Source: Actinomycetota bacterium (lineage in GTDB: Bacteria; Actinomycetota; UBA4738; HRBIN12). From it: a DNA stretch of 64,000 nucleotides. The notes below the pieces were generated by a model, which worked only from the letters and a program-made list of their open reading frames with translations, was not told the DNA's origin and searched no databases. Location: positions 8,392 through 72,391 of the forward strand of contig JBDUBL010000003.1 in the NCBI GenBank assembly GCA_040004125.1, read 5' to 3'. A program made the position numbers and the translations under genes. Shown here piece after piece: positions 17,100 to 64,000 of the stretch (positions are counted from its first letter, which is position 1; every line of letters starts with the position of its first letter).

Positions 17100-19247
17100 T
17101 CAGATCGTCCGGGCGACCTCTTCGACGTCGTAGACCTCGACGAGGTCGCCTTCCTTGAGGTCCTGGTAGTTCTCCAGGCCGATGCCGCATTCGTAGCCCT
17201 CGCGAACTTCGCCGACGTCGTCCTTGAAACGGCGCAGGGACGCGATCTTGCCGTCGTAGACCACAACGCCGTCGCGCACCAATCGGGCGAGCGCGTTGCG
17301 CTTGATCGTGCCGCCCCGCACGTAGGAGCCGCCGATCATGCCGAGCTTCGGCACGCGGAAGGTCTGACGGATCTCTGCCTCGCCGAGCACGCGCTCGTGC
17401 TCCTCGGGCTTGAGCATGCCCGACAACGCCGCCTTGATGTCGTCGATCGCGTCGTAGATCACCTTATAGGTGCGGATGTCGACGCCTTCCTTCGCGGCGA
17501 GCTCGCGCGCGTTGGTGTCCGGGCGTACGTTGAAGCCGACGATGATCGCGTCGGATGCCATGGCGAGCGTGACGTCGTTCTCGGTGATGCCCCCGGCGCC
17601 GGCGCGCACGATGTTCACGCGAACCTCCTCTTGCGGCAGCTTCAGCAACGAGTCCTCCAGCGCTTGCACCGAGCCTTGCACGTCTGCCTTCACGATCAGG
17701 TTGAGCTCCGTGATGGCGTCGGCTCCGGTGCGCCGAAGCAGGTCCTGCAATGTCGCGCGTCGCGCCACCACGAGCTCGGCCTGGCGCGATTTGGCCTCCC
17801 GCTCCTCCGCGATATGGCGCGCCTCACGCTCGTCCTCGACCTCGCGGAAGTCATCCCCCGCGCTCGGCACATGGCTCCATCCGAGGATCACGACCGGCTT
17901 GGACAACCCGGCGACGTCGACGGGCTTGCCGTTCTCGTCCTGCATCGCTCGGATCCGGCAATAGGCGGTACCCGCGATCAGCGCGTCGCCGACCGAGAGC
18001 TCGCCCTTCTGTACGAGCACCGTCGCGACAGGGCCGCGTCCCTTGTCGAGATGCGCCTCGAGCACCGTGCCCCGGGCTCGCCCGGTCGGATCGCCCTTGA
18101 GATCCTCGAGATCCGCGACCACCAACAACGTCTCGAGCAGCTTGTCGAGGTTCTGATGCACCTTCGCAGACACATCGACGAACTCGAAGTCGCCGCCCCA
18201 CTCGGACGGAATGATGCCGTGCTCCACCATCTGCGTGCGCACGCGGTTGGGGTCGGCGTTTTCTTTGTCGACCTTGTTCACCGCGACGACGATCGGCACG
18301 TTGGCGGCCTTGGCGTGGTCCAGCGCCTCGAGCGTCTGTGGCATCACGCCGTCGTCGGCGGCAACCACCAACACGGCGATGTCGGTCACGCTGGCACCGC
18401 GTGCCCGCATCGCGGTAAACGCCTCGTGGCCGGGCGTGTCGATGAACGTGATCTCGCGCTCGCCAGCGTGCGCCTGGTAGGCGCCGATGTGTTGCGTGAT
18501 GCCGCCGAACTCACCCGCGACCACGTCGGTCGAACGGATCGCGTCCAGGAGCTTCGTCTTGCCGTGGTCGACGTGGCCCATGATCGTGACCACCGGGGCA
18601 CGCGTCTCGAGCTTGGTCTCATCGATGACCTCGGCTTCTTCTTCAGCTTTCAGCTCGTCTTGGAGCCCGACGATGTCGGCGGCATAGCCAAGCTCTACCG
18701 CGATCAGCTCGATCGCCTCGTCGCCCAGCGACGTGGTTGCGGTGACCATATCGCCGGCCAAGAACAGGATCTTGACGATCTCGGCGGGCGAGCGGTTGGT
18801 CTTCTCGGCGATCGTCTGCGGCGTGGCGCCGTGGATGACCTGCAGCACCGGTCCGGTCGGGCGGTCGGGTTCCTCGGCCGGGCGCCGACGTTGTTTCGCG
18901 GTCTGAGCCTCCTCGGCAGGTGGCGCCGGGGCGATCGGATCCGCGCCGGTCTCGGGCGCAGGCACCTCGTCCGCGGCTGCCACGGCCTTCGGCTCGACTT
19001 TTGCCTTGGGCTTGGCTGCCGCCTTGGGCTTGGCTTTCGGCTTGCGCGGCGCCGGCGGTGGCTCAAGCACTTCGCGAGGCTTGGCCGGCGTGGTGGTCAC
19101 CTTGCCGCCGGAGGCCCGCAGGCGCGGGACGATGTCCTCGGGCACGCTGGAAGAAGCGGACTTGCCCGTCACGCCCATCGCACCAAGCGTTTCCAGCAGC
19201 TCTTTGCTGCTCACGCCCAGTTCCTTCGCCAGTTCGTGGACCCTCAC
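17100..19247 (-). CDS. infB: Translation initiation factor IF-2
   Basis: 715 aa with a Lys/Ala/Pro-rich N-terminal region and G-domain motifs [20 protein letters not shown] and NKVD. Confidence 0.97.
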
Positions 19248-41950: not shown

Positions 41951-42892
41951 TCAGGCCCTCGGGTGGGAGCGCTCATAGGCCTCGAAGAGCCGCGCCCGCG
42001 AGACGTGCGTGTAGCGCTGGGTGGTGGCAACGCTGCTATGTCCCAGCAGTTCCTGTACCGCGCGGATGTCAGCCCCTCCTTCCAACAGGTGTGTCGCGAA
42101 CGAGTGCCGAAGCGTGTGCGGGCCGACCCGGCGCCCCGGCAACAAGGCATCAGCATAACCGTCCACCATCGCTCGAACGTCACGCGGGGTGATCGGCTTG
42201 TGCTTGCGATTCAGGAACAGCGCCTCGGTCGGGACCGTCGCGAGGATCGGACGGGCCTCGGCCAGCCACACCCGAAGCGCCGCCACCGCGTAGTCCGAAA
42301 GCGGCACCCGGCGCTGCTTCGCGCCCTTGCCGATCACGTGTACCCGGCCGCCGTCGAGGTCGAGCCCCGTCCGCTCAAGCGTCGTGACCTCGCTCACCCG
42401 CAGGCCGGATCCGTAGAGCAACTCCAGGATCGCCTCGTCGCGCAGGCGCACCGCCTGGTCGACCGGATCCTCGGCGGGGGTCGCGGCGGGCACCTCCATC
42501 AGCGCCGCTGCCTCACCCGCCCGCAGCACGGTCGGGAGGCGGTTGGCGACCTTCGGCCTGCCGAGCAGCAGGGACGGATCGCGATCGATGCGCCCCGCGT
42601 CGTTCGCCCACCGGTAGAAGGTGTGGATCGCGCCCACGCGCCGGGCGATCGAGGCGCGGGCGTATCCGAGTGCGTGTTGCTGGGCGAGGAAGCGACGCAA
42701 GGTCGCCTGATCCGCTCCCTCCAAGGTCCGGTGCGATCGATGCAGGAACGTCGCGAGGTGCAGCAGATCCGTACGGTATGCGGTCCGGGTGTTGACCGCG
42801 AGGTGACGCTCCAGGCGCAGATGTGCAAGGAACGAATCGATCAGCTCACGCTGGGGTGCGGGCAGCGCGTCGTCGTTGGATACGGGTGCCAC
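41951..42892 (-). CDS. xerC: Tyrosine recombinase XerC
   Basis: 313 aa with the catalytic region [39 protein letters not shown]. Housekeeping synteny with dprA and whiG. Confidence 0.9.
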
Positions 42893-49945: not shown

Positions 49946-51469
49946 ATGGACGACACCACCGCGATCGCTCGTTCCCTTCCTGCGAGACCTGATCGGCGGA
50001 GCCGGCACGCGGGAACCTGGGGGGGTGTCGCCGCGGCTTGCGCGTTCGGATTCCTTGCCGACGCCGCGGCGCGGACACCCAGCGGCCTCGCGCTGACCCT
50101 GGCGACCTGGCTCGCGGGTGCTGCGGTCATTACGTTCGTGCGACCGCGTCGCGCCGGCGCGCCGTTCGTCGTCGCGGCGTGCGCGATCGGCGCCTGTCTC
50201 ACACTGCGCGCGTCCCCGGTCCTGACAGGGCTCAACGTGCTCGCCGCAGGTGCGCTGTTGTGCGCCGGAGCTTCGTTTGCGAGGCTCGGCACGCCGATCG
50301 CGACGACGACTCGCTCCTACCTGGCACGGCTCGTGTGGAGTCCACTGCAGGCGATGCCGGAGGGCGCAGCCAGCCTTGCCGGCCCGCCAACCCGCCTCCT
50401 GCGCTCATGGCGAGGCACGGCGGGGGGTCTGGCGCGTGGGTTGCTCCTCGTCGTGCCCGTCGCCCTGGCGCTGCTGGTGTTGTTGGCCAGCGCCGACGCG
50501 GTGTTCGCCCGGTATGTCCGAGTCCCGATCCGGGTGGCGCCTGGCTCGATCGCCTCGCGCGCGCTCGTGCTTGCGGTCGGAGCACTGGCGCTCGCGACAC
50601 TTGTTGCCATCGGCACGCTGGGCCCCTCGACGATCGACGCGGCAGCGCAACGGCCGGTCCGCGCTGCGTGGGCGCGGGCCGGCGACTGGGTCGCACTGCT
50701 TGTGGTGGCCGACGTCATCTTCGGGGCCTTCGTAGCGGTGCAGTTCACGGTCTTCTTCGGCGGGCGCGCGCAGGTTCTGACCGCCGAGGGGCTTACGTAC
50801 GCGCAGTACGCGCGTACCGGCTTCTGGCAACTGCTCAGTGCCACTGCGATCGCCGGGGGCGTCCTTGCCTTCGCCTGGGCTGCGCTGCCGCGCCCCCTGC
50901 CGCGGGGCGTCCGCCTGGTGTTCCAGGCGCTCGGCCTCACCCTGATCGTGTTCGTGCTCGTGGTGCTCGTATCGGCGTTCCATCGGCTGGCGCTGTACGA
51001 GGATGCATATGGCTACACGTGGCTGCGGGTGTTGGCGCACACCGCGATCCTGGCGATCGGTGCACTCCTGCTCTGCGCCATGGTGACGGTCGTGCGCGGT
51101 CGAGCGGCGTGGCTGCCCTTCGCGGCCGTCGTGATCGCGACTGCTGCGGTGCTCGGTCTCAACGTCGTGAACCTGGATGCGTTCATCGCGACGCGGAACA
51201 TCTCGCGGGCGGCGAACGGGGCTCCGCTAGATGCCAGAGAGCTGACGCGGTTGTCCGCCGACGCCGCGCCGACGATGGCGGCCGCGCTCGATTCGCTGAC
51301 CCCGGCCGCGCGCACCGACTTCGAAGGCATTCTGGCGTGCATGCGCGACCAACTCGAACGACAGACCGCGAGCGGCTGGGCCGGGAGCAACTGGGGGCGT
51401 AACCTCGCCCTCGAGGCGCTCACGGAGCGCCGTCTCCCGCCGTGTCGAGCTCCGCGAGGACCCTTCTAG
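49946..51469 (+). CDS. DUF4153/DUF4173-like polytopic membrane protein
   Basis: 507 aa with more than 10 TM segments and the conserved-looking [14 protein letters not shown] segment typical of that family. Assigned by eye. Confidence 0.65.
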
Positions 51470-52146
51470 CGCTGCTTCTCGCCGAGGTCGGGGCGGTTGC
51501 GCGCGGTCTTGGCGCGTGCGGCGTCGCGACGCCATGTCTCGATGGCTGCGTGGTCGCCCGAGACCAGCACTTCCGGCACACGCAGGCCTCGGAACGCCTG
51601 CGGCCGTGTGTAGTGGGGGTGATCGAGCAAACCGGACTCGCTGAAGGAATCGCGCGCGTGGGACTGCTCCTTGCCGATCACGCCGGGGAGCAGGCGCGTG
51701 ACCGCTTCGACGAGGACGAGCGCTGGCAGCTCTCCTCCGGACACGACGTAGTCGCCGATCGAGACTTCCTGCGCGGGGAGGCCGTCGATGACCCGCTCGT
51801 CGAACCCCTCGTAGCGCCCACACAACAGCGTGAGGTGTGGCTCTGCGGCAAGCTCGACCACGAGCGTCTGGTCCAGTCGGGGCCCCGAAGGCGACAACGC
51901 AAGCACGCGACCTCGGTCCGGATCGAGCGACTCGACCGCTGCGAACAGCGGCTCCACCCTCAACACCATGCCCGGGCCACCACCGAAGGACGCATCGTCG
52001 ACACTGCGGTGCGTATCCAGGGACCAGTCGCGCAGATCGTGGATGCGCACATCGACGAGACCACTCTCGATCGCCCTGCCGAGCAGGCTCTCGGTCAGGA
52101 ATCCAGGGAACAACCCCGGGAAGATCGTGATGATGTCGATACGCAC
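51466..52146 (-). CDS. trmD: tRNA (guanine37-N1)-methyltransferase
   Basis: 226 aa from a GTG start, with MRIDIITIFPGLF and GGELPALVLVEAVTRLLPGV. Confidence 0.95.
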   Translation of the reverse strand: MRIDIITIFPGLFPGFLTESLLGRAIESGLVDVRIHDLRDWSLDTHRSVDDASFGGGPGMVLRVEPLFAAVESLDPDRGRVLALSPSGPRLDQTLVVELAAEPHLTLLCGRYEGFDERVIDGLPAQEVSIGDYVVSGGELPALVLVEAVTRLLPGVIGKEQSHARDSFSESGLLDHPHYTRPQAFRGLRVPEVLVSGDHAAIETWRRDAARAKTARNRPDLGEKQR

Positions 52147-52187
52147 GCCCCGAGGCTACCGCGCCCCGTCGGCGCGGCCTCGTGGCG

Positions 52188-52430
52188 TCAGTGGCGGAAG
52201 GGGATCGTCAGCAGCGTCGCGGTGGAGGCCGCGACCCGGCGGATCGACGTTGCGCGCTGCGCCGACCGGCGCGCGGCGATACTGCGGCTGGCCCGGTGGC
52301 CTTCCGCGATGCGGACCATGTCGTTCACCCGGTACTTGGCAGCGTCTCCGTTCAGCATCTGCGCACCCCCTGTGTCGATGGCAACAGCGTAGGAATCGAG
52401 GTCTGCTGTCGCGATGACGACCGTCACCAT
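52188..52430 (-). CDS. Hypothetical 80-aa protein (not listed as its own ORF in the track)
   Basis: ATG 52430-52428 lies inside the 163-aa track ORF 52188-52679. Sequence: MVTVVIATADLDSYAVAIDTGGAQMLNGDAAKYRVNDMVRIAEGHRAS... then an Arg/Ala/Ser-rich tail. By hand count 68 of 80 third positions are G/C, and position-2 composition is coding-like. The stop lies 41 nt upstream of the trmD start. No Shine-Dalgarno sequence seen. Confidence 0.4.
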   Translation of the reverse strand: MVTVVIATADLDSYAVAIDTGGAQMLNGDAAKYRVNDMVRIAEGHRASRSIAARRSAQRATSIRRVAASTATLLTIPFRH

Positions 52431-52458
52431 CGACGTGTGTCGTCGGCGACCGATCCGG

Positions 52459-52474
52459 TGTGATGCGCGACACG
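52459..52474. promoter_or_regulatory. CRP-like box TGTGA-TGCGCG-ACACG (8/10 to TGTGA-N6-TCACA) in the divergent promoter region
   Basis: Read directly from the sequence. It lies 84 nt upstream of the M50-CNB start and 29 nt upstream of the 80-aa ORF start. It overlaps the 8-bp-stem palindrome cgacacgc-gggaa-gcgtgtcg (52468-52488). Confidence 0.3.
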
Positions 52475-52557
52475 CGGGAAGCGTGTCGGGTTGCGGGAAC
52501 CGCCCCCCTCGGGCAGGATGCGTTCCGGCCGTTCGCTTCCGGAGTCCGAGGAGGAGT

Positions 52558-54849
52558 ATGCAGTACCTGATCCTCGCCGCGCTGCTCATCGCGGGCTCGA
52601 TCGTGGGCGTCGACGCGATCCGCGAGCGCGCCGCCCGCCGCAAAGCGTTGCACGTTCCTGGTCTCGTCTCCGCCGCCATCCGCTCGCAAAGTCAGCCCGG
52701 AAGGCCGGTTGCACCGGCTCTGTCGGCATCGCTGGCGGCGGCGCCTCCGACCGAGGGCGACGCCGGAGGGTTGTGGGACGAGCTGACGGCGATGCTCGAT
52801 CCCGAGACGTTCGCGCCCACGCTCGCGGAGGGCACCGAGATCAAGAACTTCAAGATGCGCTGGGGCAACGACTTCGCGATCGTCGCTCGCCCCGACCACG
52901 CCCTCCATTTCGAGCTCCAGCCGTGGGAGGCGACGCTCATGGCGCAGATGGACGGCACGAAGACAGCGCAGGAGCTGATCGTCGATCACCTGCAGGCGGT
53001 CGGCGATCTCGATCCCGGCGCTGTGCTCGGGCTGATCGTGGCGCTGCGTGAGGGAGGGTTCCTCGATCCCGCCCGACCGGATGTGAAGGTGCTGGTGCAG
53101 CTGCACCTCGATCGCGCCTCGGCGGGCCGGCGGAAACTCCGCGACTTCGCGAAGAACCTCCGGATCTCGTGGTCAGGAGCGGAGCGATTCGTCGAGGGCG
53201 CGTATCGGGGCGGCCTGAAGCTCTTCTTCCGCCCTGTCATGGTTGTGCTCTGCTCCATCGTGGCGTTGGTCGGCCTCGTCGCGTTCATCGGCGTGCAGCA
53301 ATCGGGGCGCTATCAACTGTCGACGACCGCAGCACCGGTTGAGACCCTGCTGTTCCTCGCACTCGCCCTCTTCCTCACCTTCGCCCACGAGCTGGGGCAC
53401 GCCGTGGCGCTGATCCACTACGAGCGTCGGGTGCTCGGCGCCGGCTTCTTCATCTTCTTCGGGTCGCCGGCCTTCTTCGTCGACGCGTCCGACGGTTTGA
53501 TGTTGGATCGCCGTGAGCGGGTCGTGCAGTCGTTCGCGGGGCCGTTCTCGGAGATGATTCTCGCCGGCGTTGCCTCCCTCGTGATCGTGGCCACCCCGGG
53601 CAGCGGTGTCGCGGCGTTCCTCTACCGGTTCGCCCTGATCAACTACTTCTTGATCTTCATGAACCTGATCCCGCTGCTGGAGCTCGACGGGTACTGGATC
53701 TTCTCGGACCTGATCCAGGTGCCGAACCTGCGGCGGCGCTCGATCAACTTCATCCAGGGCGACCTGTGGCACAAGATCGCCACATGGGAGAAGTTCAGCC
53801 TGCAGGAGCTCGGGCTCGGCTTCTACGGGATCGTCGGGATCGCGTTCACGATCTTCTCCTTCTACACCGCCTACTTCTTCTGGAAGGAGATCTTCGGCGG
53901 CCTGATCACCAGCCTGTGGGAGGGTGGGTTCGGCTCACGGATCCTGCTGGTGTTGCTTGCCTTGGTGTTCATCGGTCCGCTGATCCGCGGGCTGCTCACG
54001 CTCGGGCGGAGCGTGTACAAGCGTCTGAAATCGATCCGCGATCAGATCAGGTTCCGCGTGCAACGGTCGTGGCGGATCGAGGCGGCTGCGTTGATCGATG
54101 CGCTCCCCGCCTTCGACGACCTCGACGAGAACGTGCTGTCGGATCTCGCGGGCCGGATCGAGCTGGTGACCGTTCGCGACGGCCAAGCAGCGTTCCGCCG
54201 CGGCGACGTCGCCGACGCGTTCTACGTCGTGCGCTCCGGCACGATCCATATCGAAGACGAGGATCTCGAGGAGGGCGACACCCGAATCATCACCACGCTC
54301 GGGCGTGGCGACGCCTTCGGCGAGTTTGGGCTCATGGGCTCCGGCGTGCGAGCGGCCACCGCGCGCGCCGAAGGTGAGGCGACGCTGTTCCGCGTCGACA
54401 AGGCATCGTTCGATCGGCTGCTCGCCGACGACATCGACGCGCCGGACTTCGCCCCGACGATGCAGGCCTACGCCGAGCTTCGCTCGCTGCCGCCGCTGCG
54501 GACCTTGTCCACGACTGACCTCGCCCTCGTCCTGGAGCACGGCGAATGGCGCAACGTGGCGCCCGGGGAGCGACTGATCCGGCAGGGCGAAGCCGGCGAT
54601 GCCTTCTTCGCGATCGGCGCCGGACAGGTTGACGTCGAGAGGGACGGTGCGATCATCGCCACCCTCGGTCCCGGCCAGCACTTCGGCGAGATCGCGCTGT
54701 TGACCGACGAGCCACGCAATGCCAGCGTGACCGCGCACACGCCGCTGCGGGTCTTCGTTCTGGATCGCGAGGGATTCATCCGCGTGATCGCTCGAACGTT
54801 CCGACGCGGCGCGGCGGAACGAACACCCGACCGGAACATGGAGCACTGA
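52558..54849 (+). CDS. Polytopic M50-family (site-2-protease-like) metalloprotease with PqqD-like segment and two C-terminal cyclic-nucleotide-binding domains
   Basis: Trimmed from track ORF 52414-54849 to ATG 52558, directly after GAGGAGGAG, giving 763 aa. HELGH at 53386-53400 and NLIPLLELDG at 53662-53691. Phosphate-binding cassettes FGEFGLMGSGVRAATARA (54316-54369) and FGEIALLTDEPRNASVTA (54682-54735). Residues ~95-170 resemble PqqD/RRE. Confidence 0.85.
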   Translation: MQYLILAALLIAGSIVGVDAIRERAARRKALHVPGLVSAAIRSQSQPGRPVAPALSASLAAAPPTEGDAGGLWDELTAMLDPETFAPTLAEGTEIKNFKMRWGNDFAIVARPDHALHFELQPWEATLMAQMDGTKTAQELIVDHLQAVGDLDPGAVLGLIVALREGGFLDPARPDVKVLVQLHLDRASAGRRKLRDFAKNLRISWSGAERFVEGAYRGGLKLFFRPVMVVLCSIVALVGLVAFIGVQQSGRYQLSTTAAPVETLLFLALALFLTFAHELGHAVALIHYERRVLGAGFFIFFGSPAFFVDASDGLMLDRRERVVQSFAGPFSEMILAGVASLVIVATPGSGVAAFLYRFALINYFLIFMNLIPLLELDGYWIFSDLIQVPNLRRRSINFIQGDLWHKIATWEKFSLQELGLGFYGIVGIAFTIFSFYTAYFFWKEIFGGLITSLWEGGFGSRILLVLLALVFIGPLIRGLLTLGRSVYKRLKSIRDQIRFRVQRSWRIEAAALIDALPAFDDLDENVLSDLAGRIELVTVRDGQAAFRRGDVADAFYVVRSGTIHIEDEDLEEGDTRIITTLGRGDAFGEFGLMGSGVRAATARAEGEATLFRVDKASFDRLLADDIDAPDFAPTMQAYAELRSLPPLRTLSTTDLALVLEHGEWRNVAPGERLIRQGEAGDAFFAIGAGQVDVERDGAIIATLGPGQHFGEIALLTDEPRNASVTAHTPLRVFVLDREGFIRVIARTFRRGAAERTPDRNMEH

Positions 54850-54859
54850 GGAGGATCCG

Positions 54860-55072
54860 ATGGTGTGTTGGCATTGCCGCCGGACGGCGGTCGGCTCCTG
54901 CCGATTCTGTGGGCGTGGCGTGTGCGAGGACCACGCCAAGGAGCAGCCGTACGTCCTCGAGCTCTTCCGAGGCGGCGATATGACCCGCGCCCTCGTGGTC
55001 GAGGACGCCCTGTTCTGTGGAGCGTGTACGCCTCGACCGGATCCGATCGACCTGCCTGAGCTAGACGAGTGA
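54860..55072 (+). CDS. Small 8-Cys zinc-ribbon protein (DUF2180-like / B-box-like; family assignment tentative)
   Basis: 70 aa: MVCWHCRRTAVGSCRFCGRGVCEDHA...FCGACTPRP. The Shine-Dalgarno sequence GAGGAGGA (54848-54855) overlaps the stop of the upstream gene, with a 10-nt gap to the ATG, indicating translational coupling. Confidence 0.7.
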   Translation: MVCWHCRRTAVGSCRFCGRGVCEDHAKEQPYVLELFRGGDMTRALVVEDALFCGACTPRPDPIDLPELDE

Positions 55073-55083
55073 CGTTCGTCACA
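55068..55083. promoter_or_regulatory. Near-consensus CRP/GlxR-type box AGTGA-CGTTCG-TCACA
   Basis: 9/10 match to TGTGA-N6-TCACA and internally palindromic (GTGACG-TT-CGTCAC). It overlaps the stop codon of the Zn-ribbon gene and lies upstream of the small repeat ORF and crp. Confidence 0.5.
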
Positions 55084-55090
55084 CATCTGC

Positions 55091-55106
55091 CGTGACGGAA
55101 AGCACC
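55091..55106. promoter_or_regulatory. Second, weaker CRP-like box CGTGA-CGGAAA-GCACC
   Basis: 7/10 match to the consensus. Its centre is 23 bp from the first box. Confidence 0.25.
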
Positions 55107-55151
55107 GAGCGGATGTGACCCGCGATACCGACGACTCGGCGTTCCAGCGGG

Positions 55152-55361
55152 ATGATGCCGACATTGCACCGGCCCAAGAGGGCCCCGGACAGAGGGAGCG
55201 GCGAGATGGGCGACAAGAAGATTCAGCCGAAGCGGCCCGAGGGCGAGCAGGCGGCAGCGGGGATCCGCGATGCCGAGAAGACGTCGGCGCGGCGCTTCAG
55301 TGCGAGGCGCTGGAGTGCGAGGCGCTGGAGTGCGAGGCGCTGGAGTGCGAAGAGGGTCTGA
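55152..55361 (+). CDS. Small basic protein ending in a (S-A-R-R-W/F)x4 repeat; likely start at ATG 55206 (51 aa)
   Basis: Track ORF of 69 aa. GAGGGAG (55192-55198) lies 7 nt before ATG 55206. By hand count 44 of 51 third positions are G/C. TGA is at 55359-55361, 20 nt before a perfect hairpin. The reading frame across the repeat itself is ambiguous (see findings). Confidence 0.4.
   Translation: MMPTLHRPKRAPDRGSGEMGDKKIQPKRPEGEQAAAGIRDAEKTSARRFSARRWSARRWSARRWSAKRV
55291..55350 (+). repeat. Tandem direct repeat, 4 x 15 bp (GGCGCT[TC/GG]AGTGCGA)
   Basis: Copy 1 (55291-55305) is ggcgcttcagtgcga. Copies 2-4 (55306-55350) are identical, ggcgctggagtgcga. Confidence 0.95.
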
Positions 55362-55380
55362 GCCAACGAACTGGTGGCAC

Positions 55381-55412
55381 GAAAGGCCCGGGCCCGATGG
55401 CCCGGGCCTTTC
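55381..55412 (+). terminator. Perfect 14-bp-stem hairpin (gaaaggcccgggcc-cgat-ggcccgggcctttc)
   Basis: Read directly from the sequence. It lies 20 nt after the small-ORF stop and 56 nt before the crp ATG. There is no U-tract on either strand, so it may be an I-shaped terminator or processing site, possibly bidirectional. Confidence 0.5.
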
Positions 55413-55467
55413 GCTTGATCCGCGCCGGGTAGCGGAGACCCGCACCTTGCCGGTAGGCTCCACCACG

Positions 55468-56169
55468 ATGGCCGCTACCACCGACGCCGGGCTCGTTCCC
55501 GCCATGGCCTCCACCCCCGTGCTCCGGGGTGTCCCCCAGGAGCATGTCGAGAAGCTCGCCTCGCAGGGGGCGGTGCACCGCTTCCGCCGTGGCACCTACA
55601 TCTGCCACCAGGGGGATCCCTCCCCGGACGTGTATTTCCTCCTCGAGGGGCGGATCGAGATCGCCTCCTTCTCCCCGACCGGCGCTCGGATCCTGCACGC
55701 GTCCGTCGACACACCGCAGTTCTTAGGCGAGCTCGGTGTGCTCGGGAACCTCCCCCGGGGCGCCGATCTGCTCGCCCTCGAGGACACCGATGTGTGGACG
55801 ACGCCCGGGGATGACTTCATCGACTTCATCACGAGGCAGCCGGGAGCCGCGCGCCAGCTGCTGGCCGCTCTCGCGCGGCAGATCCAGGAACACCAGGCCT
55901 TCTCCGACGACCTGCTGTACCTCGACCTCAAGGGGCGGGTCGCGAAGCGGCTGCTCCAGATGGGCACGTCGTCGCTCGACGATCTCCCCGATGCAGGGAC
56001 GTCGGTGCCCGCGCTTACGCACGCGGACCTCGCCAGTCTCTGCGGCGGCAGCCGCGAGAACGTGACGCGGATCGTGGCGGACTTCCAGCGCCGCGGCATG
56101 GTGAACCGCGACGGGAAACGCTACATCTTGAAGAACCCCGTGCAGCTGGCCAAGATCGCCGGGCTCTAG
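55468..56169 (+). CDS. Crp/Fnr-family transcriptional regulator (CNB domain plus C-terminal HTH)
   Basis: Trimmed from track ORF 55270-56169 to ATG 55468 (MAATTDAGLVPAMASTPVLRGVPQEHVEKL...), giving 233 aa. CNB cassette FLGELGVLGNLPRGADL and HTH THADLASLCGGSRENVTRIVADFQRRG. TAGGCT (55454-55459) lies 8 nt before the ATG, suggesting a leaderless transcript. Confidence 0.88.
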   Translation: MAATTDAGLVPAMASTPVLRGVPQEHVEKLASQGAVHRFRRGTYICHQGDPSPDVYFLLEGRIEIASFSPTGARILHASVDTPQFLGELGVLGNLPRGADLLALEDTDVWTTPGDDFIDFITRQPGAARQLLAALARQIQEHQAFSDDLLYLDLKGRVAKRLLQMGTSSLDDLPDAGTSVPALTHADLASLCGGSRENVTRIVADFQRRGMVNRDGKRYILKNPVQLAKIAGL

Positions 56170-56684
56170 CCCGCGTCGTCGGGAGCCGTCAGTCCGGGCA
56201 GATCCCGTACGACGGCACGGCCGCCGGGGATATCGACCGAAACCACGAGATCGTCCACGGCAGGGATCAAGGTCTCGGTTCCGGGATCGGCGACGACGCG
56301 CCAGAGATCCTGGGCCGGGTAGGGCAGGACCTCGGCGATGCGGCCGATGGCTCTTCCGGACTCCGTCACGACATCGAGGCCCTCCACCTGATGAGACCAC
56401 CACCGGCCCTCGGGCAACTCCGGAAGCCAGGACTCGGGAATGAGCAGCTCGATACCGGCCACAGCTTCGGCCTCCGTTCGATCGCCGATCTCCTCGAAGG
56501 TCACGAGCAGTCGCTCGCCGTGCGGGCGGACGGTGCGCACGGTGTACGTGTGGCCCGTCGCGTCGAAGACGACCGCGCCGGGCACCCAGCGCTTGGGGTT
56601 GTCGGATCGGCTCTGCACGGACAACTCACCGCGCACACCGTGGGGCTTGGCGATGCGGCCGACGGTCACCGTCGGCTCGTCCAT
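56166..56684 (-). CDS. rimM: 16S rRNA processing protein RimM
   Basis: Trimmed to ATG 56684 (MDEPTVTVGRIAKPHGVRGELSVQ...), giving 172 aa. Sits in the conserved position after the KH protein. Confidence 0.93.
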   Translation of the reverse strand: MDEPTVTVGRIAKPHGVRGELSVQSRSDNPKRWVPGAVVFDATGHTYTVRTVRPHGERLLVTFEEIGDRTEAEAVAGIELLIPESWLPELPEGRWWSHQVEGLDVVTESGRAIGRIAEVLPYPAQDLWRVVADPGTETLIPAVDDLVVSVDIPGGRAVVRDLPGLTAPDDAG

Positions 56685-56685
56685 C

Positions 56686-56916
56686 TCAGTCCTCGAAGTC
56701 GACGCGGGCCGCCAGGTCCTGGCGCGACGCGGCTGCGCGCACGACCGTGCGGATCGCCTTGGCGGTGCGGCCACCACGGCCTATCACCTTGCCGAGCTCA
56801 CCGGGGGCCACCGTCACGCTGTACGTAGGGCCTCGCTCGTCGAATCGCTCGCCGACGCGCACGGCGTCGGGGTCATCGACCAACTCGCGGCATAGGAACT
56901 CGACGAGCTCCTTCAC
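56686..56916 (-). CDS. KH-domain RNA-binding protein (YlqC/UPF0109)
   Basis: 76 aa with LGKVIGRGGRTAKAIRTVV. Confidence 0.92.
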   Translation of the reverse strand: MKELVEFLCRELVDDPDAVRVGERFDERGPTYSVTVAPGELGKVIGRGGRTAKAIRTVVRAAASRQDLAARVDFED

Positions 56917-56917
56917 C

Positions 56918-57376
56918 TCAGGCCTCGGCCGTCTCCTCGGCGGGCGGAGCCTCGACAGCCACCTCCGTGGCGACCGCAGCCGCTTCCTCGACCGGGGCGG
57001 GCTTGGGCGCCGCGGCGGTCTTCACGGCCTGGGCGGCCTTGGCCTGCGCCTTCTTCGACACCTTCTCCTTGGCGGGGCGCTCGGTCTTGGTCTTGACGCC
57101 GATCGTGGCGCTCGGACGCTCCTTGACGAAGGTCTCCCAGATGCCGAGCTTGCTCATGAGGTTGCGAACCTGGTTCGATGGCTGGGCCCCCACCCGGAGC
57201 CAATGCAGCGCACGCTCCTCGTCGATCTCGATCAGCGAGGGGTCGCTCAACGGGTGATACTTGCCGATGTTTTCGATGAAGCGGCCGTCGCGGGGTGCCC
57301 GTTGGTCGGCCACCACTACGCGGTAGAAGGGCCGACCCTTCGATCCCATCCGCCGCAACCGGATCCTCGTCGCCAT
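56918..57376 (-). CDS. rpsP: 30S ribosomal protein S16 (with Ala/Lys/Glu-rich tail)
   Basis: 152 aa: [35 protein letters not shown]... Confidence 0.96.
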
Positions 57377-58824: not shown

Positions 58825-60627
58825 ATGAACGGGGCGGATAGCGAAGCGGCAAGGCTCGAGCGACACCTGGTCTGGCTGCGGTGGCTGGTGGCCGCCTTCG
58901 GGGCGGTCCAGGTCGGGTTTGCCGTCCGCGATCGGGGCCACGACCCGGCGTTCGCGCTCCCCTTGGCTGTGGCGCTGGTGATCGGCCTCACCGTGGGGAA
59001 CCTGGCGATCGCGAGCTCGGTCCGCAGGGCGACGAAGCCCACGCAGTTCCGCGCGATAGGCGTGGTTGCCTTCGTGCTCGACGCCGTCGTGATCCTCGGC
59101 CTCGTCTGGCTGGTTCCCAGCGGTCCGGCGGACCCCGTCTGGGTCCTCGGGTACCTCGTCCCGCTCGAGGGGGCGGCCCGATGGGGGCTGCGCGGCGGCC
59201 TGATCGGCGCCACCTTGTTCCTCGGGGAGCAGATCATGCAGGAGGCGGCCCGTGCCCAGGTCGCCGCCGGCGCTTCCCAGGTGTCGTTCCGCGCCGGGAT
59301 GGCCTTCGTGATCGGCGCCGTCACCGGTTCCTTCGTCTCGTCGTTGCAGCGCACCGCCGCCACCGCGGCGGCGAAGGCGGCCGAGGCGGCCGAGGCGGCC
59401 CAGCGCGCCGAACTTGCAGCGGCGCAGGCATCCGAGGCGCAGCGCGAGATCGCGGCGTTCCACGCCGCCGTGTTGTCCGACGCGCAGCCCGAACATCTCG
59501 CCGAGACGCTGCGGTCGACCGCCGGGCGGATCGCCGCGGAGCTCGAGTGCGAGGCCCTCGGGCTGCTCACGAGATCAACCGGGGCGGCCGGAGAGGTGAT
59601 CTTTGCGGTCGCGGGGGTGCATGGCGACCCGGGCTATCTGCTCGGTCAGCGGTTGTCGCCCGTCTCCGATCCCGTGGCCGCAGCTGCGATCGACGGCGAA
59701 ACGGTGGTCGCGCAGGGCGACGTCGTGGCGCCGATGCGAGTTCGAGGCAAGGTGGTGGGCGCCGTCCACGAGCGCGCAACGACGAGCCCCGATCCCGCCC
59801 GCATCGACGCGCTCCAGACGATCGCGGACCAGCTGGGTGTCGCGCTGGAGGCTACGCGCCTGCGCGCCGAGCAGGCCGCGATCGTCGAACGACTGACCGA
59901 GCTCGACACGATGAAGAGCGACTTCGTTGCGATCACGAGTCACGAGCTGCGCACCCCGCTGGCCGGGATCCGAGGCTTCGTCGACATGTTGTTGCGTCGT
60001 GGTCCCGAGCTGTCGCCGGCTGAGCAGCAAGAGTACCTCGGCATCGTCCAGACGCAGACCGAACGTCTGATCCACCTGGTGGACGATCTTCTCGTCGTCT
60101 CACGCGTGGAGGGCGATGCGCTGACGCTGGAGCCCACCGACATCGCGATCCGTTCGGTGCTGGCCCAGGTCGTTGCCGGGCTTGGCGAGTCCGGCGTCCG
60201 CATCGCGCTGGAAGAGGCTCCCGGCGCGCCCTCGACGTTGACGATCGACCCGAATCGCCTGATCCAGATCCTGACCAACCTGACCCACAACGCGGTGAAG
60301 TTCTCTCCCGCAGACGCGGTCGTCCGGCTCCGCTGGTCGGCGCCGGCGGAAGGAACGATCGTGTTCGAAGTGATCGATCGCGGCCCGGGCATCCCGCCCG
60401 CCGAGCAGCAGCTGATCTTCGAGCGATTCCGGCAGCGCGGCGACCACCGCTCCCACGCCGAGGGGTTTGGACTCGGTCTCTATATCACGAAGCTGTTGAC
60501 CGAGGCGATGGGCGGGTGGATCGACGTCACGTCGTCTCGCGAGGGCACGACGTTTCGGGTCACGCTTCCGGTGGCCCGTCCGTTGCCAACACCCGCTCGA
60601 CCGTCCGCAGCAACGCGGTCGGACTGA
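58825..60627 (+). CDS. Sensor histidine kinase (N-terminal ~5-TM domain, coiled coil, GAF, HisKA, HATPase_c)
   Basis: 600 aa. GAGGGAA lies upstream of ATG 58825. H-box ITSHELRTPLAGI, N-box LTNLTHNAVKF, G-boxes DRGPGI and GFGLGLYI. A GAF-like region lies at about residues 230-340. Confidence 0.9.
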   Translation: MNGADSEAARLERHLVWLRWLVAAFGAVQVGFAVRDRGHDPAFALPLAVALVIGLTVGNLAIASSVRRATKPTQFRAIGVVAFVLDAVVILGLVWLVPSGPADPVWVLGYLVPLEGAARWGLRGGLIGATLFLGEQIMQEAARAQVAAGASQVSFRAGMAFVIGAVTGSFVSSLQRTAATAAAKAAEAAEAAQRAELAAAQASEAQREIAAFHAAVLSDAQPEHLAETLRSTAGRIAAELECEALGLLTRSTGAAGEVIFAVAGVHGDPGYLLGQRLSPVSDPVAAAAIDGETVVAQGDVVAPMRVRGKVVGAVHERATTSPDPARIDALQTIADQLGVALEATRLRAEQAAIVERLTELDTMKSDFVAITSHELRTPLAGIRGFVDMLLRRGPELSPAEQQEYLGIVQTQTERLIHLVDDLLVVSRVEGDALTLEPTDIAIRSVLAQVVAGLGESGVRIALEEAPGAPSTLTIDPNRLIQILTNLTHNAVKFSPADAVVRLRWSAPAEGTIVFEVIDRGPGIPPAEQQLIFERFRQRGDHRSHAEGFGLGLYITKLLTEAMGGWIDVTSSREGTTFRVTLPVARPLPTPARPSAATRSD

Positions 60628-61956: not shown

Positions 61957-64000
61957 TCAGCCTACCGGAGGACTCGCCAGCTCCTCGTCGAGGCCTACGG
62001 ACAGGATCGGCTCGTCGTCGGACGCGGACTGCGGCGCGGAGGCCCCGGCGGCGGCTCCGCGCTCCGCTTCGACGCTTTGCTGGTTCTCCAGTCGCTGGGC
62101 GACCACCTTGGTGGTCCCGTCGTTGTTGAGGGAGATGCCATAGAGCATGCCGGCGATCTCCATCGTCCGCTTCTGGTGGGTCACGATGAGCACCTGCGAA
62201 GCGTCGGCGAACCCGTCCACCAGCCGCAGGAACCGATGCAGATTGACGTCGTCCAGCGCCGGTTCCACCTCGTCCATGAGATAGAAGGGCGAAGGTCGAG
62301 CGGTGAAGATCGCGAACAGGAACGCCATCGCGGTCAACGAGCGTTCGCCGCCGGACAGCAGCGAGATGCGCTTGACCCGCTTGCGGCCGGGGCTCGCCTC
62401 GATCTCGATGCCGGACGCAAGCGGGCTCGCGGGGTCGGTCAGCACGAGGCGGCCCTCGCCACCGGGGAACAGCTCTGCGATGAGCCGCTCGAACTGGATC
62501 GCCACATCTTGATAGGCCGACGTGAACGACTCCGTGATCTGCTGATCGATCTGCGCGACCACCTCGAGGAGATCGCGCCGCGCCTTGCGTACATCGTCAA
62601 GCTCGCGCTGCATGAAGTCGTGGCGCTCCTGCATCGACTCGAGCTCTCCGGTCGCCAGCAGGTTCACGCGACCGAGCAAGGCGAGGCGACGCTGCACGAG
62701 CTCCTGCCGCTTCTCGATCGTCTCGACGCCCTCGTCGTCGCTGAGCGTCGCAAGGATATCTGCGGGCTCGATCGCGAAGCCCTCTCGTAACAGCCGTTCC
62801 GCCTCCCCGATGCGCCGCTCGATGTCGCCCCGAAGGCGGTCCTCGTCCTCGTAGCGCTCCCGGAGCTCGTCCAGGGAGGTCGAGGCATCACGCCAACTCT
62901 TGTTGACGGCTGCCTCGCGCTCGGCCGCGGCGCGCTCGGCGAGGCCCGCCGCCTCGCGGGCCTCGGCGACGGCCGTGAAGGCGGCGTCGGCACGAGCAAC
63001 CGCGGTCTCGGCCTCTGTGCGAGCCGTTTCGGCGGCGGCGAGCTCTGCACGCAGCCGCGCCGGATCGTGCGCCGCAAGTTGATCGCGCTCGACGCGAAGT
63101 TCGGACACGCGGTGATCCTGGTTGGCGCGCTCGCGACGCAACGTCTCCACCGTGACGCGCACCTGGATCGGGGCTTGCGGAAGCGGCGGGAGCTCCGGCG
63201 CCTCCTCGGCGGCGCCGGGCCCCATCTCGGCGATCCGCTCGCGCGCCGCGGATGCGGTCTCGGCAACCACGCCCAGCCGCTGTGCGAGCAACTCCTCCTC
63301 CTTGTGCATCGCGGCGAGCTCGCGCTCGGCGGTGATCAGCCGCTCGGCGGCCTCGGTGATATCTGCATCGGCGGCCTCGATCTGCTCCTGCAAGAACAAC
63401 ACCTCCCCGGCGATCTCGTCGAGTCGCTCCGTGCGGGGGCGAAGCTGTTGTTCGGTCGCCGAGAGGTCGTGTGCGAGGACCTGCAGTTCGGCGCGGATCT
63501 CGCGCAGCCGGACATCGGCCTCCTTCGCGGTATGGATCACGGCGGGGCCGACCAGCACACCTTCCGCGGTCACGAACGACGCCCGCGGGTTCTCGATCTG
63601 CTTGCGCGCCGCCTCGGCGATATCGCCGACGAGGTAGACGTCGCGCAGCACCGTCGAGACGATCCCGCGCGCCGAGGGCTCGGCATCGACCTTCGATAGG
63701 AGCTTCTGCTCGCCCGACAGGCCGATCGGCACGGGGCCGCCTGCGGCGATCGCGAGGATCGCACCGGCGCCGTGGGGGGCGTCCTCGAGCGCACGGTCGC
63801 CGTCGTCATAGACCACGGCGTCGGCGAGCGGGCCGAGCGCCGCGACGAGAGCACGCTCGAGACCGGCCTCGACACGAACGAGATCCCGAAGCAGACCGAT
63901 TGCCTGGCCCGTGTGTCCGGCGAGGAACCGCGAGCCGGGCGTCTCCTCGATGTCGCGACGACGGGCATCGAGCAGGTCCTTGCGAGCCTGCATCCGCCGG
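61957..64000 (-). CDS. smc: Chromosome segregation protein SMC, C-terminal ~680 codons (5' end beyond the window end)
   Basis: Long coiled coil followed by LSGGERSLTAMAFLFAIF...FYLMDEVEPALDD (ABC signature plus Walker B). The ORF stays open to position 64000. Confidence 0.94.
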   Translation of the reverse strand, partial: RRMQARKDLLDARRRDIEETPGSRFLAGHTGQAIGLLRDLVRVEAGLERALVAALGPLADAVVYDDGDRALEDAPHGAGAILAIAAGGPVPIGLSGEQKLLSKVDAEPSARGIVSTVLRDVYLVGDIAEAARKQIENPRASFVTAEGVLVGPAVIHTAKEADVRLREIRAELQVLAHDLSATEQQLRPRTERLDEIAGEVLFLQEQIEAADADITEAAERLITAERELAAMHKEEELLAQRLGVVAETASAARERIAEMGPGAAEEAPELPPLPQAPIQVRVTVETLRRERANQDHRVSELRVERDQLAAHDPARLRAELAAAETARTEAETAVARADAAFTAVAEAREAAGLAERAAAEREAAVNKSWRDASTSLDELRERYEDEDRLRGDIERRIGEAERLLREGFAIEPADILATLSDDEGVETIEKRQELVQRRLALLGRVNLLATGELESMQERHDFMQRELDDVRKARRDLLEVVAQIDQQITESFTSAYQDVAIQFERLIAELFPGGEGRLVLTDPASPLASGIEIEASPGRKRVKRISLLSGGERSLTAMAFLFAIFTARPSPFYLMDEVEPALDDVNLHRFLRLVDGFADASQVLIVTHQKRTMEIAGMLYGISLNNDGTTKVVAQRLENQQSVEAERGAAAGASAPQSASDDEPILSVGLDEELASPPVG

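Follow-up and report, generated by a model that had tools for sequence, protein, structure and literature searches.

Two published findings bear on the locus considered here. The daptide protease MpaP, in which an RRE (RiPP recognition element, a RiPP being a peptide made on the ribosome and modified after translation) is joined to a site-2 protease, cuts off the leader (bioRxiv 10.1101/2023.03.08.531785). Proteases of the M50 family also mature epipeptides and pearlins (PMC10885120). Our locus lies in a stretch of 64,000 nucleotides from an Actinomycetota bacterium (assembly GCA_040004125.1, contig JBDUBL010000003.1, positions 8,392 to 72,391; hereafter the window, numbered from its first letter), with a GC content of 68.6%. 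The closest genome records are metagenome-assembled genomes (MAGs) labeled "uncultured Actinomycetes bacterium" and "Actinomycetota bacterium". The element in question is a small gene at 55206-55361, built on a 15-bp tandem repeat and situated downstream of an M50 protease gene and upstream of crp. Its best reading, to which we give a probability of about 0.6 from sequence comparison, is a peptide induced by cyclic AMP (cAMP) and CRP, whose conserved head would dock on the RRE of the neighboring protease.

Four 15-bp units lie head to tail at 55291-55305, 55306-55320, 55321-55335, and 55336-55350: GGCGCTTCAGTGCGA, followed by three copies of GGCGCTGGAGTGCGA. A first-pass annotation, made from the letters alone, had described four units with the last three identical, and both direct reading and Tandem Repeats Finder (TRF) bear this out. 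TRF places the array at 55287-55350 (period 15, 4.3 copies, 93% matches) with a score of 107, which no other of its 56 rows for the 64 kb attains. With up to two mismatches allowed, the unit occurs in the window only in this array and at one chance site, 59538 (5 matches versus 0.74 expected). Other notable tandem repeats in the window lie at 18985-19044 (18 bp x 3.3, score 71), 63330-63379 (24 bp x 2.1, score 70), and 59363-59412 (9 or 18 bp x 4.2 or 2.7, scores 55-56).

The array encodes, on the plus strand, the (RRF/W-S-A)n basic tail of an open reading frame (ORF) that begins at ATG 55206 and closes at TGA 55359-55361. Its 51-residue product, MGDKKIQPKRPEGEQAAAGIRDAEKTSARRFSARRWSARRWSARRWSAKRV, contains 11 arginine and 5 lysine residues versus 5 aspartate or glutamate residues. 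A Shine-Dalgarno sequence, GAGGGAG (55192-55198), precedes the start codon by 7 nt, and purine-rich GGAG-type motifs occupy the same place in all homologues. The descriptive points that the first-pass annotation listed for this region all proved accurate: the product itself, which matches the translated ORF exactly; the good Shine-Dalgarno sequence at that distance; 44 third positions with G or C, consistent with a third-position GC content (GC3) of 0.85 over 52 codons; the rarity of the codons AGT (5 of 81 serine codons) and AGG (10 of 146 arginine codons) in six confident window genes; a perfect hairpin close behind the stop codon, with a 15-bp stem and a 4-nt loop (55380-55413), beginning 18 nt past the stop; and, in the -1 frame, an ORF (55115-55432) that reads ALECE three times and continues through the hairpin.

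That annotation had left the coding frame ambiguous, (SARRW)n versus (ALECE)n. Coding in the ATG 55206 frame (frame 0), and not in the ALECE frame, is now practically certain from sequence conservation. Five related loci (L001-L005) were retrieved through the upstream protease gene, and in each of them the corresponding position is occupied by a homologue of the frame-0 ORF. Indeed, the small gene is present in all seven loci chosen through the protease alone (L001-L005, L014, and L015), out of 15 related loci in total. Frame 0 gave the top cross-locus alignment score in five of five comparisons; the ORF, its start codon, and a GGAG-type Shine-Dalgarno sequence are kept throughout L001-L015, with gaps of only 3 or 6 nt. 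Alignment of the orthologous region, proposed earlier as a check, therefore yields a conserved frame 0, a synonymous pattern, and indels in multiples of three.

Comparison between strains points the same way. Over 741 positions, a strain in sequencing run X4 shows 26 differences from the window (96.5% identity). Four differences fall within the ORF (55223, 55301, 55305, and 55346), and all four are synonymous in frame 0; two of them would alter residues in the ALECE frame. At the protein level identity is 100% (P0001), and the same four repeat units are kept. Peptide repeats also persist where the codons have diverged: (KKLSH)3 of locus L005 is written with the leucine codons TTG and CTG and the serine codons AGC, TCC, and AGT, and the four RRW units of L006 use CGC, CGG, CGA, CGT, and AGG. 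Selection has therefore acted on the protein and not on DNA identity. For the head, the ratio of nonsynonymous to synonymous change (pN/pS) is 0-0.27 among orthologues and 0.5-1 between paralogues (27 codons).

The gene region is represented in RNA libraries, at the level of contigs that do not resolve strand or transcript ends. Metatranscriptome contigs from three runs span 55175-55350, including the exact 45-nt repeat cycle, and one of these contigs, which comes from a relative (X14), runs on as RRFSMRRFSARR. One of the options raised by the first-pass annotation, a real Arg/Trp-rich mini-protein, thus has strong support on four counts: the conserved family, the synonymous-only strain differences, the synonymous repeat codons, and the RNA contigs.

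The protein belongs to a family of its own. A profile search gathered 85 proteins from MAGs and metagenomes of Actinomycetota, every one of them labeled "hypothetical", and HMMER, run exhaustively against 1.84 billion cluster representatives, returned 54 clusters formed at 50% identity. The head MAEKKIQPKxPxxDEPAAGARKAEKTSA is common to more than 130 homologues; behind it comes a basic tail that varies and has no acidic residues. All relatives are uncultured, and in the sequences found the family keeps to one clade of soil and sediment Actinomycetota. Scans of the small protein and five relatives against Pfam, NCBIfam, and PADLOC gave no match, and a profile search of Protein Data Bank (PDB) sequences returned only a basic stretch of eL27 (E = 0.62, not significant).

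The head (residues 1-28; 55206-55289) is the conserved part. Residues M1, K4, and P8 are invariant in an alignment of 50 sequences, with I6 and P11 nearly so, and AAGxR and KTSA motifs follow; in an alignment of eight sequences I6, P11, and R21 are invariant too. AlphaFold2, run on the 50-sequence alignment, predicts coil for residues 1-22 and a single helix for residues 23-50, with a mean predicted local distance difference test score (pLDDT) of 68.5, and 64-81 in the helix. Alignments, pN/pS, and structure prediction together mark the head as a predicted disordered segment and a candidate docking or leader region.

Tails, by comparison with the head, vary freely. They have a median of 43% lysine plus arginine, no acidic residues, and diverse C-termini (V, I, S, K, H, Y, and others). 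Exact tandem peptide repeats occur in 36 of 89 members: the unit has five residues in 22 of them, and units of 3, 4, 6, 7, 8, and 9 residues also occur. Examples are SARRW, MRRWS/TRRWT, HAKRV, KKLSH, KKVSR, KKLGH, AKKMH (six copies), AKKLH (seven), ARKLQ (five), SAKRT (four), ARKVA (four), RKTGAV (six or seven), TAVKRS (seven or eight), KRTVIKP, SAKKVGKL, and RRALHKKTL. The L003 protein reads MAEKKIQPKLPTSDEPAAGARKAEKTSAKRV(HAKRV)4; both gene copies of L005 end in (KKLSH)3; and L001, L002, and L004 each have two tandem paralogues whose basic tails lack repeats. With periods ranging from 3 to 9, it is composition that seems to be under selection, and not a structural period.

Perfect repetition at the DNA level is limited to the tails of the window, L003, L013, L014, and L015, which indicates recurrent in-frame tandem duplication followed by synonymous decay. 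The RRW pentad recurs with other codons and spacer residues in the second gene copy of L006, in P0021, and in the X14 RNA contig. The pentad of the window is therefore older than its perfect DNA repeat, and the tract of three identical 15-bp units is a recent re-expansion with rare codons. Copy number in the window strain is that of the given assembly: in short-read run X1, which holds this strain, contigs break inside the perfect repeat, so that copies are not countable there. The 45-nt contigs in X3, X15, and X16 are a period-15 cycle assembled with 31-letter words; they attest at least three perfect units and give no copy count.

Two further features of the tails deserve mention. Many contain R-R-x-S or K-K-x-S (RRWS, KKLSH, KKVSR), a basophilic Ser/Thr kinase consensus that is curious beside cAMP. 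As a family feature the motif was rejected, being absent from the HAKRV, AKKLH, ARKVA, and KRTVIKP tails. In seven homologues (P0033, P0035, P0051, P0063, P0072, P0214, and P0241) the frame switches within or just before the repeat tail, and reading continues past the terminator; in P0241 an ALEHA-type tail follows a near-identical head. Indel errors or pseudogenes are the simplest account of these entries, the alternative being real frameshift variants.

Upstream of the gene lie three CRP-like boxes. Box 1 (55068-55083), AGTGACGTTCGTCACA, is a perfect GTGA-N6-TCAC palindrome, supported by an enrichment scan and by locus comparison. Box 2 (55092-55105), GTGACGGAAAGCAC, has one mismatch and lies 23 bp from box 1; its sequence and a spacing of 23-24 bp are kept in L001-L008 and L012. 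Box 3 (55115-55128), GTGACCCGCGATAC, is degenerate, lies 23 bp from box 2, and has the invariant columns GTGACCnnCGnTAC. A perfect GTGACGnnCGTCAC(A) box is found 5' of the gene in every locus, the promoter-distal copy in L005 and L009 having a mismatched box only, and in most gene copies it is joined by two more boxes of the form GTGA-N6-nnAC, at intervals of 23-24 bp. Boxes at this spacing recur 5' of the first or sole gene copy in every locus. The CRP boxes of the first-pass annotation are thus real and conserved across loci. Perfect GTGA-N6-TCAC sites number five in the window versus 0.9 expected by shuffling. The other four lie at 31343 and 58978, inside high-GC3 ORFs; at 10719, about 250 nt outside one; and at 42384, in no filtered ORF.

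Box 3 is followed on the plus strand by a -10-like hexamer, GATGAT (55151-55156), with A at position 2 and T at position 6; GGnATGAT is invariant in six aligned copies. The distance from the center of box 3 to the end of the [G/C]A[T/A]GAT hexamer is 34.5-35.5 bp in 13 gene copies (34.5 in the window). A start site near 55163, about 7 nt past the hexamer, would put box 3 at about -41.5, the classical class II CRP position in Escherichia coli. CRP control of the small gene is therefore probable, judged from this arrangement. Gene callers often start the small protein at the promoter ATGATG, giving entries of 64-69 residues (P0004, P0007, P0009, P0010, P0028, and others). ATG 55152, which would open a 69-residue ORF, was rejected as a start: in L003 and L004 the conserved ATGATG at this point does not share the frame of the ORF, and it behaves as a promoter element. 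In the window, callers could also extend crp upstream through the repeat. The 64-69-residue entries and the crp-extended ORF are annotation artifacts.

The hairpin at 55380-55413, CGAAAGGCCCGGGCC-CGAT-GGCCCGGGCCTTTCG, is a perfect palindrome present in both the minimum free energy (MFE) and centroid folds, and resembles an intrinsic terminator with a weak U tract. A terminator scan missed it, the U tract being weak, and reported a spurious minus-strand site. Comparable hairpins with a CCCGGG core lie 3' of the stop codon in 16 of 22 gene copies; those of L005 and L007 are of the GGGCCCGG type, and L009-L011 were not read. Every copy whose downstream DNA was read has a GC-rich hairpin behind its stop codon. 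As a perfect palindrome, the element would fold identically on a minus-strand transcript and could block antisense read-through from rimM. A paralogue in L007, with neither crp nor the protease nearby, has the same arrangement of boxes, promoter, ORF, and hairpin. By sequence, each gene copy is a self-contained unit: boxes, a -10-like hexamer (in most), the ORF, and a GC hairpin (in most).

The neighboring protease (52558-54849, plus strand) is a membrane M50 (site-2-type) metalloprotease, assigned through Pfam, NCBIfam, motifs, and the RRE fold. It comprises an N-terminal transmembrane helix, an RRE/PqqD-fold domain at about 52837-53052, the HExxH motif (FAHELGH), the motif NLIPLLELDG, and two C-terminal cyclic nucleotide monophosphate (cNMP)-binding domains. 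The transmembrane helix is followed by a positive stretch, RERAARRK, and the next domain is consequently predicted to be cytoplasmic. The protein matches the NCBIfam model NF041824 (daptide_HExxH) over model positions 17-349 of 379 (2.9e-47, 161.6 bits) and NF058609 (YydH/LiaK) at 5e-12. It has at least 1064 homologues, some of which JGI names "putative peptide zinc metalloprotease".

The N-terminal domain was characterized by structure. AlphaFold2 modeled residues 68-207 from 41 sequences as three strands followed by three helices (pLDDT 87). The best PDB matches by Foldseek were RRE proteins that bind leader peptides, namely TbiB1 with bound leader, PqqD, and a lasso B1 protein (probability 1.00; target-normalized template modeling scores 0.59-0.65). 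Pfam PqqD was not detected by sequence on this domain; the fold emerges from structure prediction and Foldseek only. On that basis the earlier label, a PqqD-like protease, was apt. The protein is an RRE-site-2 protease as in daptide MpaP, plus two cyclic-nucleotide sensors.

These elements suggest the following mechanism. cAMP-bound Crp would bind the three boxes, the proximal one in a class-II-like position, and drive a monocistronic transcript of about 250 nt that ends at the hairpin. The disordered head would be the ligand of the cytoplasmic RRE; the two cNMP-binding domains would gate the protease, and cleavage would part head from tail. cAMP would then govern both synthesis and processing of a polycationic tail peptide, which, once freed, could bind polyanions in the cell or be exported.

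That the small protein is a substrate or precursor of the protease is, by our estimate, a little short of an even bet. The model accounts for a conserved N-terminus with a free C-terminus, for one or two precursor-like gene copies, and for a peptide-recognition domain next door. The one or two genes in each island, N-terminally conserved and C-terminally hypervariable, agree with a leader and core layout. The first-pass annotation had raised a repeat-core precursor of the protease, and this proposal is plausible and has gained strength: the RRE/PqqD fold and the homology to RiPP leader peptidases favor it, and the absence of a tailoring enzyme and an exporter counts against it. A wider proposal, which we consider doubtful, is that the island is a cAMP-gated peptide-maturation module of a new kind, in which CRP switches on the precursors and the RRE protease, its two cNMP-binding domains acting as an integral second-messenger sensor, docks the head and frees an unmodified polycationic peptide. 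By analogy with what has been proposed for EpeP, this peptide may be exported through or alongside the protease and serve as an antimicrobial or a signal; the cores would diversify between lineages by tandem duplication and not by point mutation.

Several observations weigh against docking on the protease and against CRP induction. Neither a tailoring enzyme nor an exporter lies within about 6 kb in any locus read. The NF041824 score of 161.6 is well below the equivalog cut-off of 300, and Foldseek gave the RRE matches modest E-values (2e-3 to 5e-3). The daptide motif ELExMEAP is missing from the head, as is a C-terminal threonine from the tail. Site-2 proteases usually cut helices embedded in the membrane, and no hydrophobic segment is present in the small peptide. 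The zinc-ribbon protein encoded between the protease and the small gene is another candidate for the RRE ligand. With its own promoter and terminator, and a paralogue elsewhere in L007, the small gene can function without an adjacent protease gene. On the regulatory side, a generic sigma-70 scan found no consensus promoter at the gene; CRP binding, like the -10 element and the start site, is predicted from sequence; and the RNA support consists of contigs only, which could include DNA carry-over.

The small gene is one member of a plus-strand island (M50 protease, 70-residue zinc-ribbon protein, one or two small genes, crp), an arrangement that the window shares with 14 of the 15 related loci. 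This island (52147-56169, within 51466-57376) is inserted antisense between trmD and rimM and splits the near-universal rpsP-khpA-rimM-trmD-rplS operon; trmD, rplS, lepB, and rnhB lie on one side and rimM, khpA, rpsP, and ffh on the other. The crp stop codon overlaps that of rimM by 4 nt (56166-56169). Because the operon is split, a separate promoter for trmD must lie in 52147-52557, where CRP-like boxes are present as well. The small gene keeps its position in the island over protease divergence down to about 52% identity. PADLOC matches on the protease and Crp reflect only the cNMP-binding domain shared with Pycsar effectors, and a defense-island reading was rejected in view of the fixed chromosomal position across the whole clade.

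The crp-family gene (55468-56169, plus strand; Pfam, NCBIfam, and ORF reading) encodes cNMP-binding and HTH_Crp_2 domains with the recognition helix RENVTR. This follows the R-E-x-x-x-R pattern; in E. coli CRP, such a helix reads GTGA half-sites. The gene lies 107 nt 3' of the small gene and 55 nt past the hairpin. A TAGGCT -10 element at 55454-55459, 8 nt before the crp ATG, recurs 7-10 nt before that codon in the window, L002, L003, L004, L014, and L015. This suggests an independent, leaderless or near-leaderless crp mRNA that starts just past the terminator of the small gene.

The zinc-ribbon-like protein (54860-55072, plus strand) starts 10 nt past the protease stop codon. It has 70 residues, the pattern CxxC...CxxCGRGVCxxH...CxxC, an acidic C-terminus (DPIDLPELDE), and only weak matches to DUF2180 and C5HCH. 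Its gene is called in L006, L008-L011, and L013-L015, and read as an ORF in L003 and L004; in L005 it is the in-frame 70-residue part of an 83-residue ORF, and in L012 no gene is called at that position. Its length is constant in nearly all loci. The protein might assist or regulate the protease as a partner, or be the alternative RRE ligand. CRP-like boxes with at most one mismatch also lie 5' of the protease gene, at 52414-52427 and 52460-52473 in the window. Measured from the ATG, they stand at about -99 in the window, L001, L003, L004, and L006, and at about -145 in the window, L003, and L006; at -59 there is a perfect box in L009 and one with a single mismatch in L005. By these sites, the whole island may be a CRP regulon.

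Other explanations start from the composition of the protein or from its position. The small protein might be a free-standing polyanion binder, induced by CRP, whose tail coats DNA, RNA, ribosomes, or polyphosphate, much as H1-like nucleoid proteins or small basic ribosomal proteins do, its proximity to the protease reflecting shared cAMP regulation only. The 16 Arg/Lys versus five acidic residues, tails that are about 43% Lys/Arg and acid-free, and a composition kept across the family in place of sequence or period (units of 3-9) are what such a protein would show; the gene also has its own promoter and terminator, one paralogue lies away from the island, and the island sits inside the rpsP-rimM-trmD-rplS ribosome-biogenesis cluster. 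A precedent is the DNA-binding chlamydial protein Hc2, whose size varies via lysine-rich pentamer repeats (PMC2848022), and the weak, non-significant PDB match is to a basic stretch of eL27. Left unexplained are the RRE domain that the adjacent protease carries, the head as the conserved part, and the kept gene position; moreover, Pfam, NCBIfam, and PDB-sequence scans matched no DNA- or RNA-binding domain or known ribosomal-protein family. We regard this explanation as possible and rather unlikely. A cis-acting leader peptide for crp, in which translation of the Arg/Trp-codon repeat sets termination at 55380-55413, is far less probable. In its favor, rare codons are repeated in a short ORF that ends 18 nt ahead of a strong hairpin, which in turn precedes crp by 55 nt. 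Yet conservation is at the amino-acid level and in the head, not at the 3' end; the reiterated codons differ by lineage (Lys/Leu/His, Arg/Val, and others); loci with two copies have another small gene after the first, and the L007 copy precedes an AMP-binding enzyme. There is no competing antiterminator in the fold; the hairpin is in both the MFE and the centroid structure, and crp has its own -10 element for a leaderless mRNA in six loci.

Two more explanations concern the repeat itself. It might be a hypermutable variable-number tandem repeat, a contingency locus in which copy number, or frameshifting into the ALECE-type frame, tunes the product; this would be a property added to the gene and is, in our judgment, improbable. 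A perfect 45-bp tract is a good slippage substrate, unit number differs among relatives (KKLSH three or four times, HAKRV one to four, AKKLH seven), and out-of-frame tails run through the terminator in P0033, P0051, P0063, P0214, and P0241. However, the units measured in DNA (15, 18, and 21 bp) are all multiples of 3, so slippage cannot switch the frame; the X4 strain, at 3.5% divergence, likewise has four units; each frameshifted entry stands as a single sequence, in some cases on a long contig, and runs into GPG-rich translation of the hairpin, as for indel errors or pseudogenes; and short-read contigs cannot count copies. Of the frameshift-prone or recently expanded repeat that the first-pass annotation had entertained, recent in-frame expansion therefore stands and frameshifting does not. 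The repeat might, finally, be non-coding (iterons or structured RNA), or be read as ALECE (55115-55432), as the minus-strand LALQR ORF (55223-55366), or as the VRGAG upstream extension of crp (55270-56169, a 299-residue ORF). All these ORFs are open; the ALECE frame has common codons in the repeat and a GC pattern of 0.79/0.42/0.95; and the repeat region pairs with itself in a fold whose transcript z-score is -3.5. None of these frames is conserved, the X4 differences change ALECE residues, and crp in relatives starts at MSPT or MAAT, past the terminator. Homologous tails have unrelated DNA units, yet always the basic frame-0 reading. At a permissive E-value all Rfam hits fell below threshold, the best with 25 bits versus 45, hairpin-only, to the 3' ends of small RNA models. 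The earlier suggestion of non-coding iterons or an RNA element is accordingly rejected, frame and peptide repeats being conserved and no Rfam family reaching threshold, and the supposed ambiguity of frame was an artifact of judging codon bias on five repeated codons. We find these readings scarcely credible.

What emerges is that an ambiguous repeat has become a defined gene family, one with no Pfam or NCBIfam model, whose every database entry is a "hypothetical protein", many of them mis-started or fused to crp. The family provides a clean natural case of a small protein that has evolved through repeated in-frame tandem duplication while selection acted on its composition. The island joins three cAMP-sensing elements (CRP boxes, crp, and the two cNMP-binding domains of the protease) to RRE peptide recognition, and offers a direct experimental way to learn how cAMP signaling in Actinomycetota governs proteolysis or the production of peptides. 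On an RRE-M50-cNMP protease or on the peptide family, nothing relevant turned up among the papers searchable. The small-protein family, the cNMP-binding fusion on an RRE peptidase, the CRP-box wiring, and core diversification by tandem duplication thus appear to be undescribed in the libraries and papers searched. The locus also suggests that RRE-guided genome mining overlooks peptide systems that lack tailoring enzymes. If the maturation-module proposal is true, the module would be a class of ribosomal peptide defined by protease and regulation, not by modification, and would include the first second-messenger-gated RRE peptidase.

Parts of the locus invite comparison with other known systems. 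The small, basic actinobacterial ribosomal proteins bS22 and bL37 are likewise very short, highly basic, and encoded beside ribosome-biogenesis genes. The small protein differs in its hypervariable tail, its narrow distribution, and its predicted CRP control, as opposed to constitutive expression, and no sequence similarity to them was found. The promoter resembles class II CRP promoters of E. coli and the actinobacterial Crp/GlxR regulon (TGTGA-N6-TCACA) in its perfect box accompanied by two degenerate ones, a proximal box at about -41.5, and the R-E-x-x-x-R helix; three boxes at 23-bp spacing are unusual, and binding, start site, and sign of regulation are here predicted.

Histone H1-like repeat proteins include Bordetella BpH1, Pseudomonas AlgP, and the mycobacterial HupB tail. 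Like the tails described here, Chlamydia Hc2 (hctB) has short tandem repeats rich in lysine and arginine, often pentamers, whose number and arrangement vary between strains by in-frame tandem duplication (PMC2848022). The H1-like proteins differ in being three to five times longer and Ala/Lys-rich, with demonstrated DNA binding, and in having no conserved N-terminal head, RRE-protease neighbor, or CRP-box promoter.

The epipeptide system YydF/EpeX with YydH/EpeP also pairs a small peptide with a membrane M50 protease, in keeping with the NF058609 match. Here the peptide family is another one, cNMP and CRP control are added, and there is no radical-SAM epimerase or ABC transporter. The daptides offer the nearer parallel, with clear differences: the loci read contain no transporter and none of the tailoring genes MpaB/C/D/M (DUF-RRE MpaB, alcohol-dehydrogenase-type MpaC, aminotransferase, and methyltransferase); the head is MAEKKIQPKxP..., without ELExMEAP, and no invariant C-terminal threonine follows; the core is polycationic and repetitive, not aliphatic; and the protease has two extra cNMP-binding domains compared with MpaP, and the low model score given above. 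Daptide-class identity was thus rejected, since leader motif, C-terminal threonine, and tailoring genes were all looked for and none was found. So was the label RiPP: the island holds no modification enzyme and the zinc-ribbon protein has no enzyme match, an enzyme encoded elsewhere in the genome being possible. Like MpaA with MpaP/DapP, however, the actinobacterial locus places one or more short precursor-like genes, each with a conserved N-terminal and a variable C-terminal part, beside a site-2-type HExxH protease with an N-terminal RRE. By analogy, the small gene would work most like a leader/core precursor together with its RRE peptidase.

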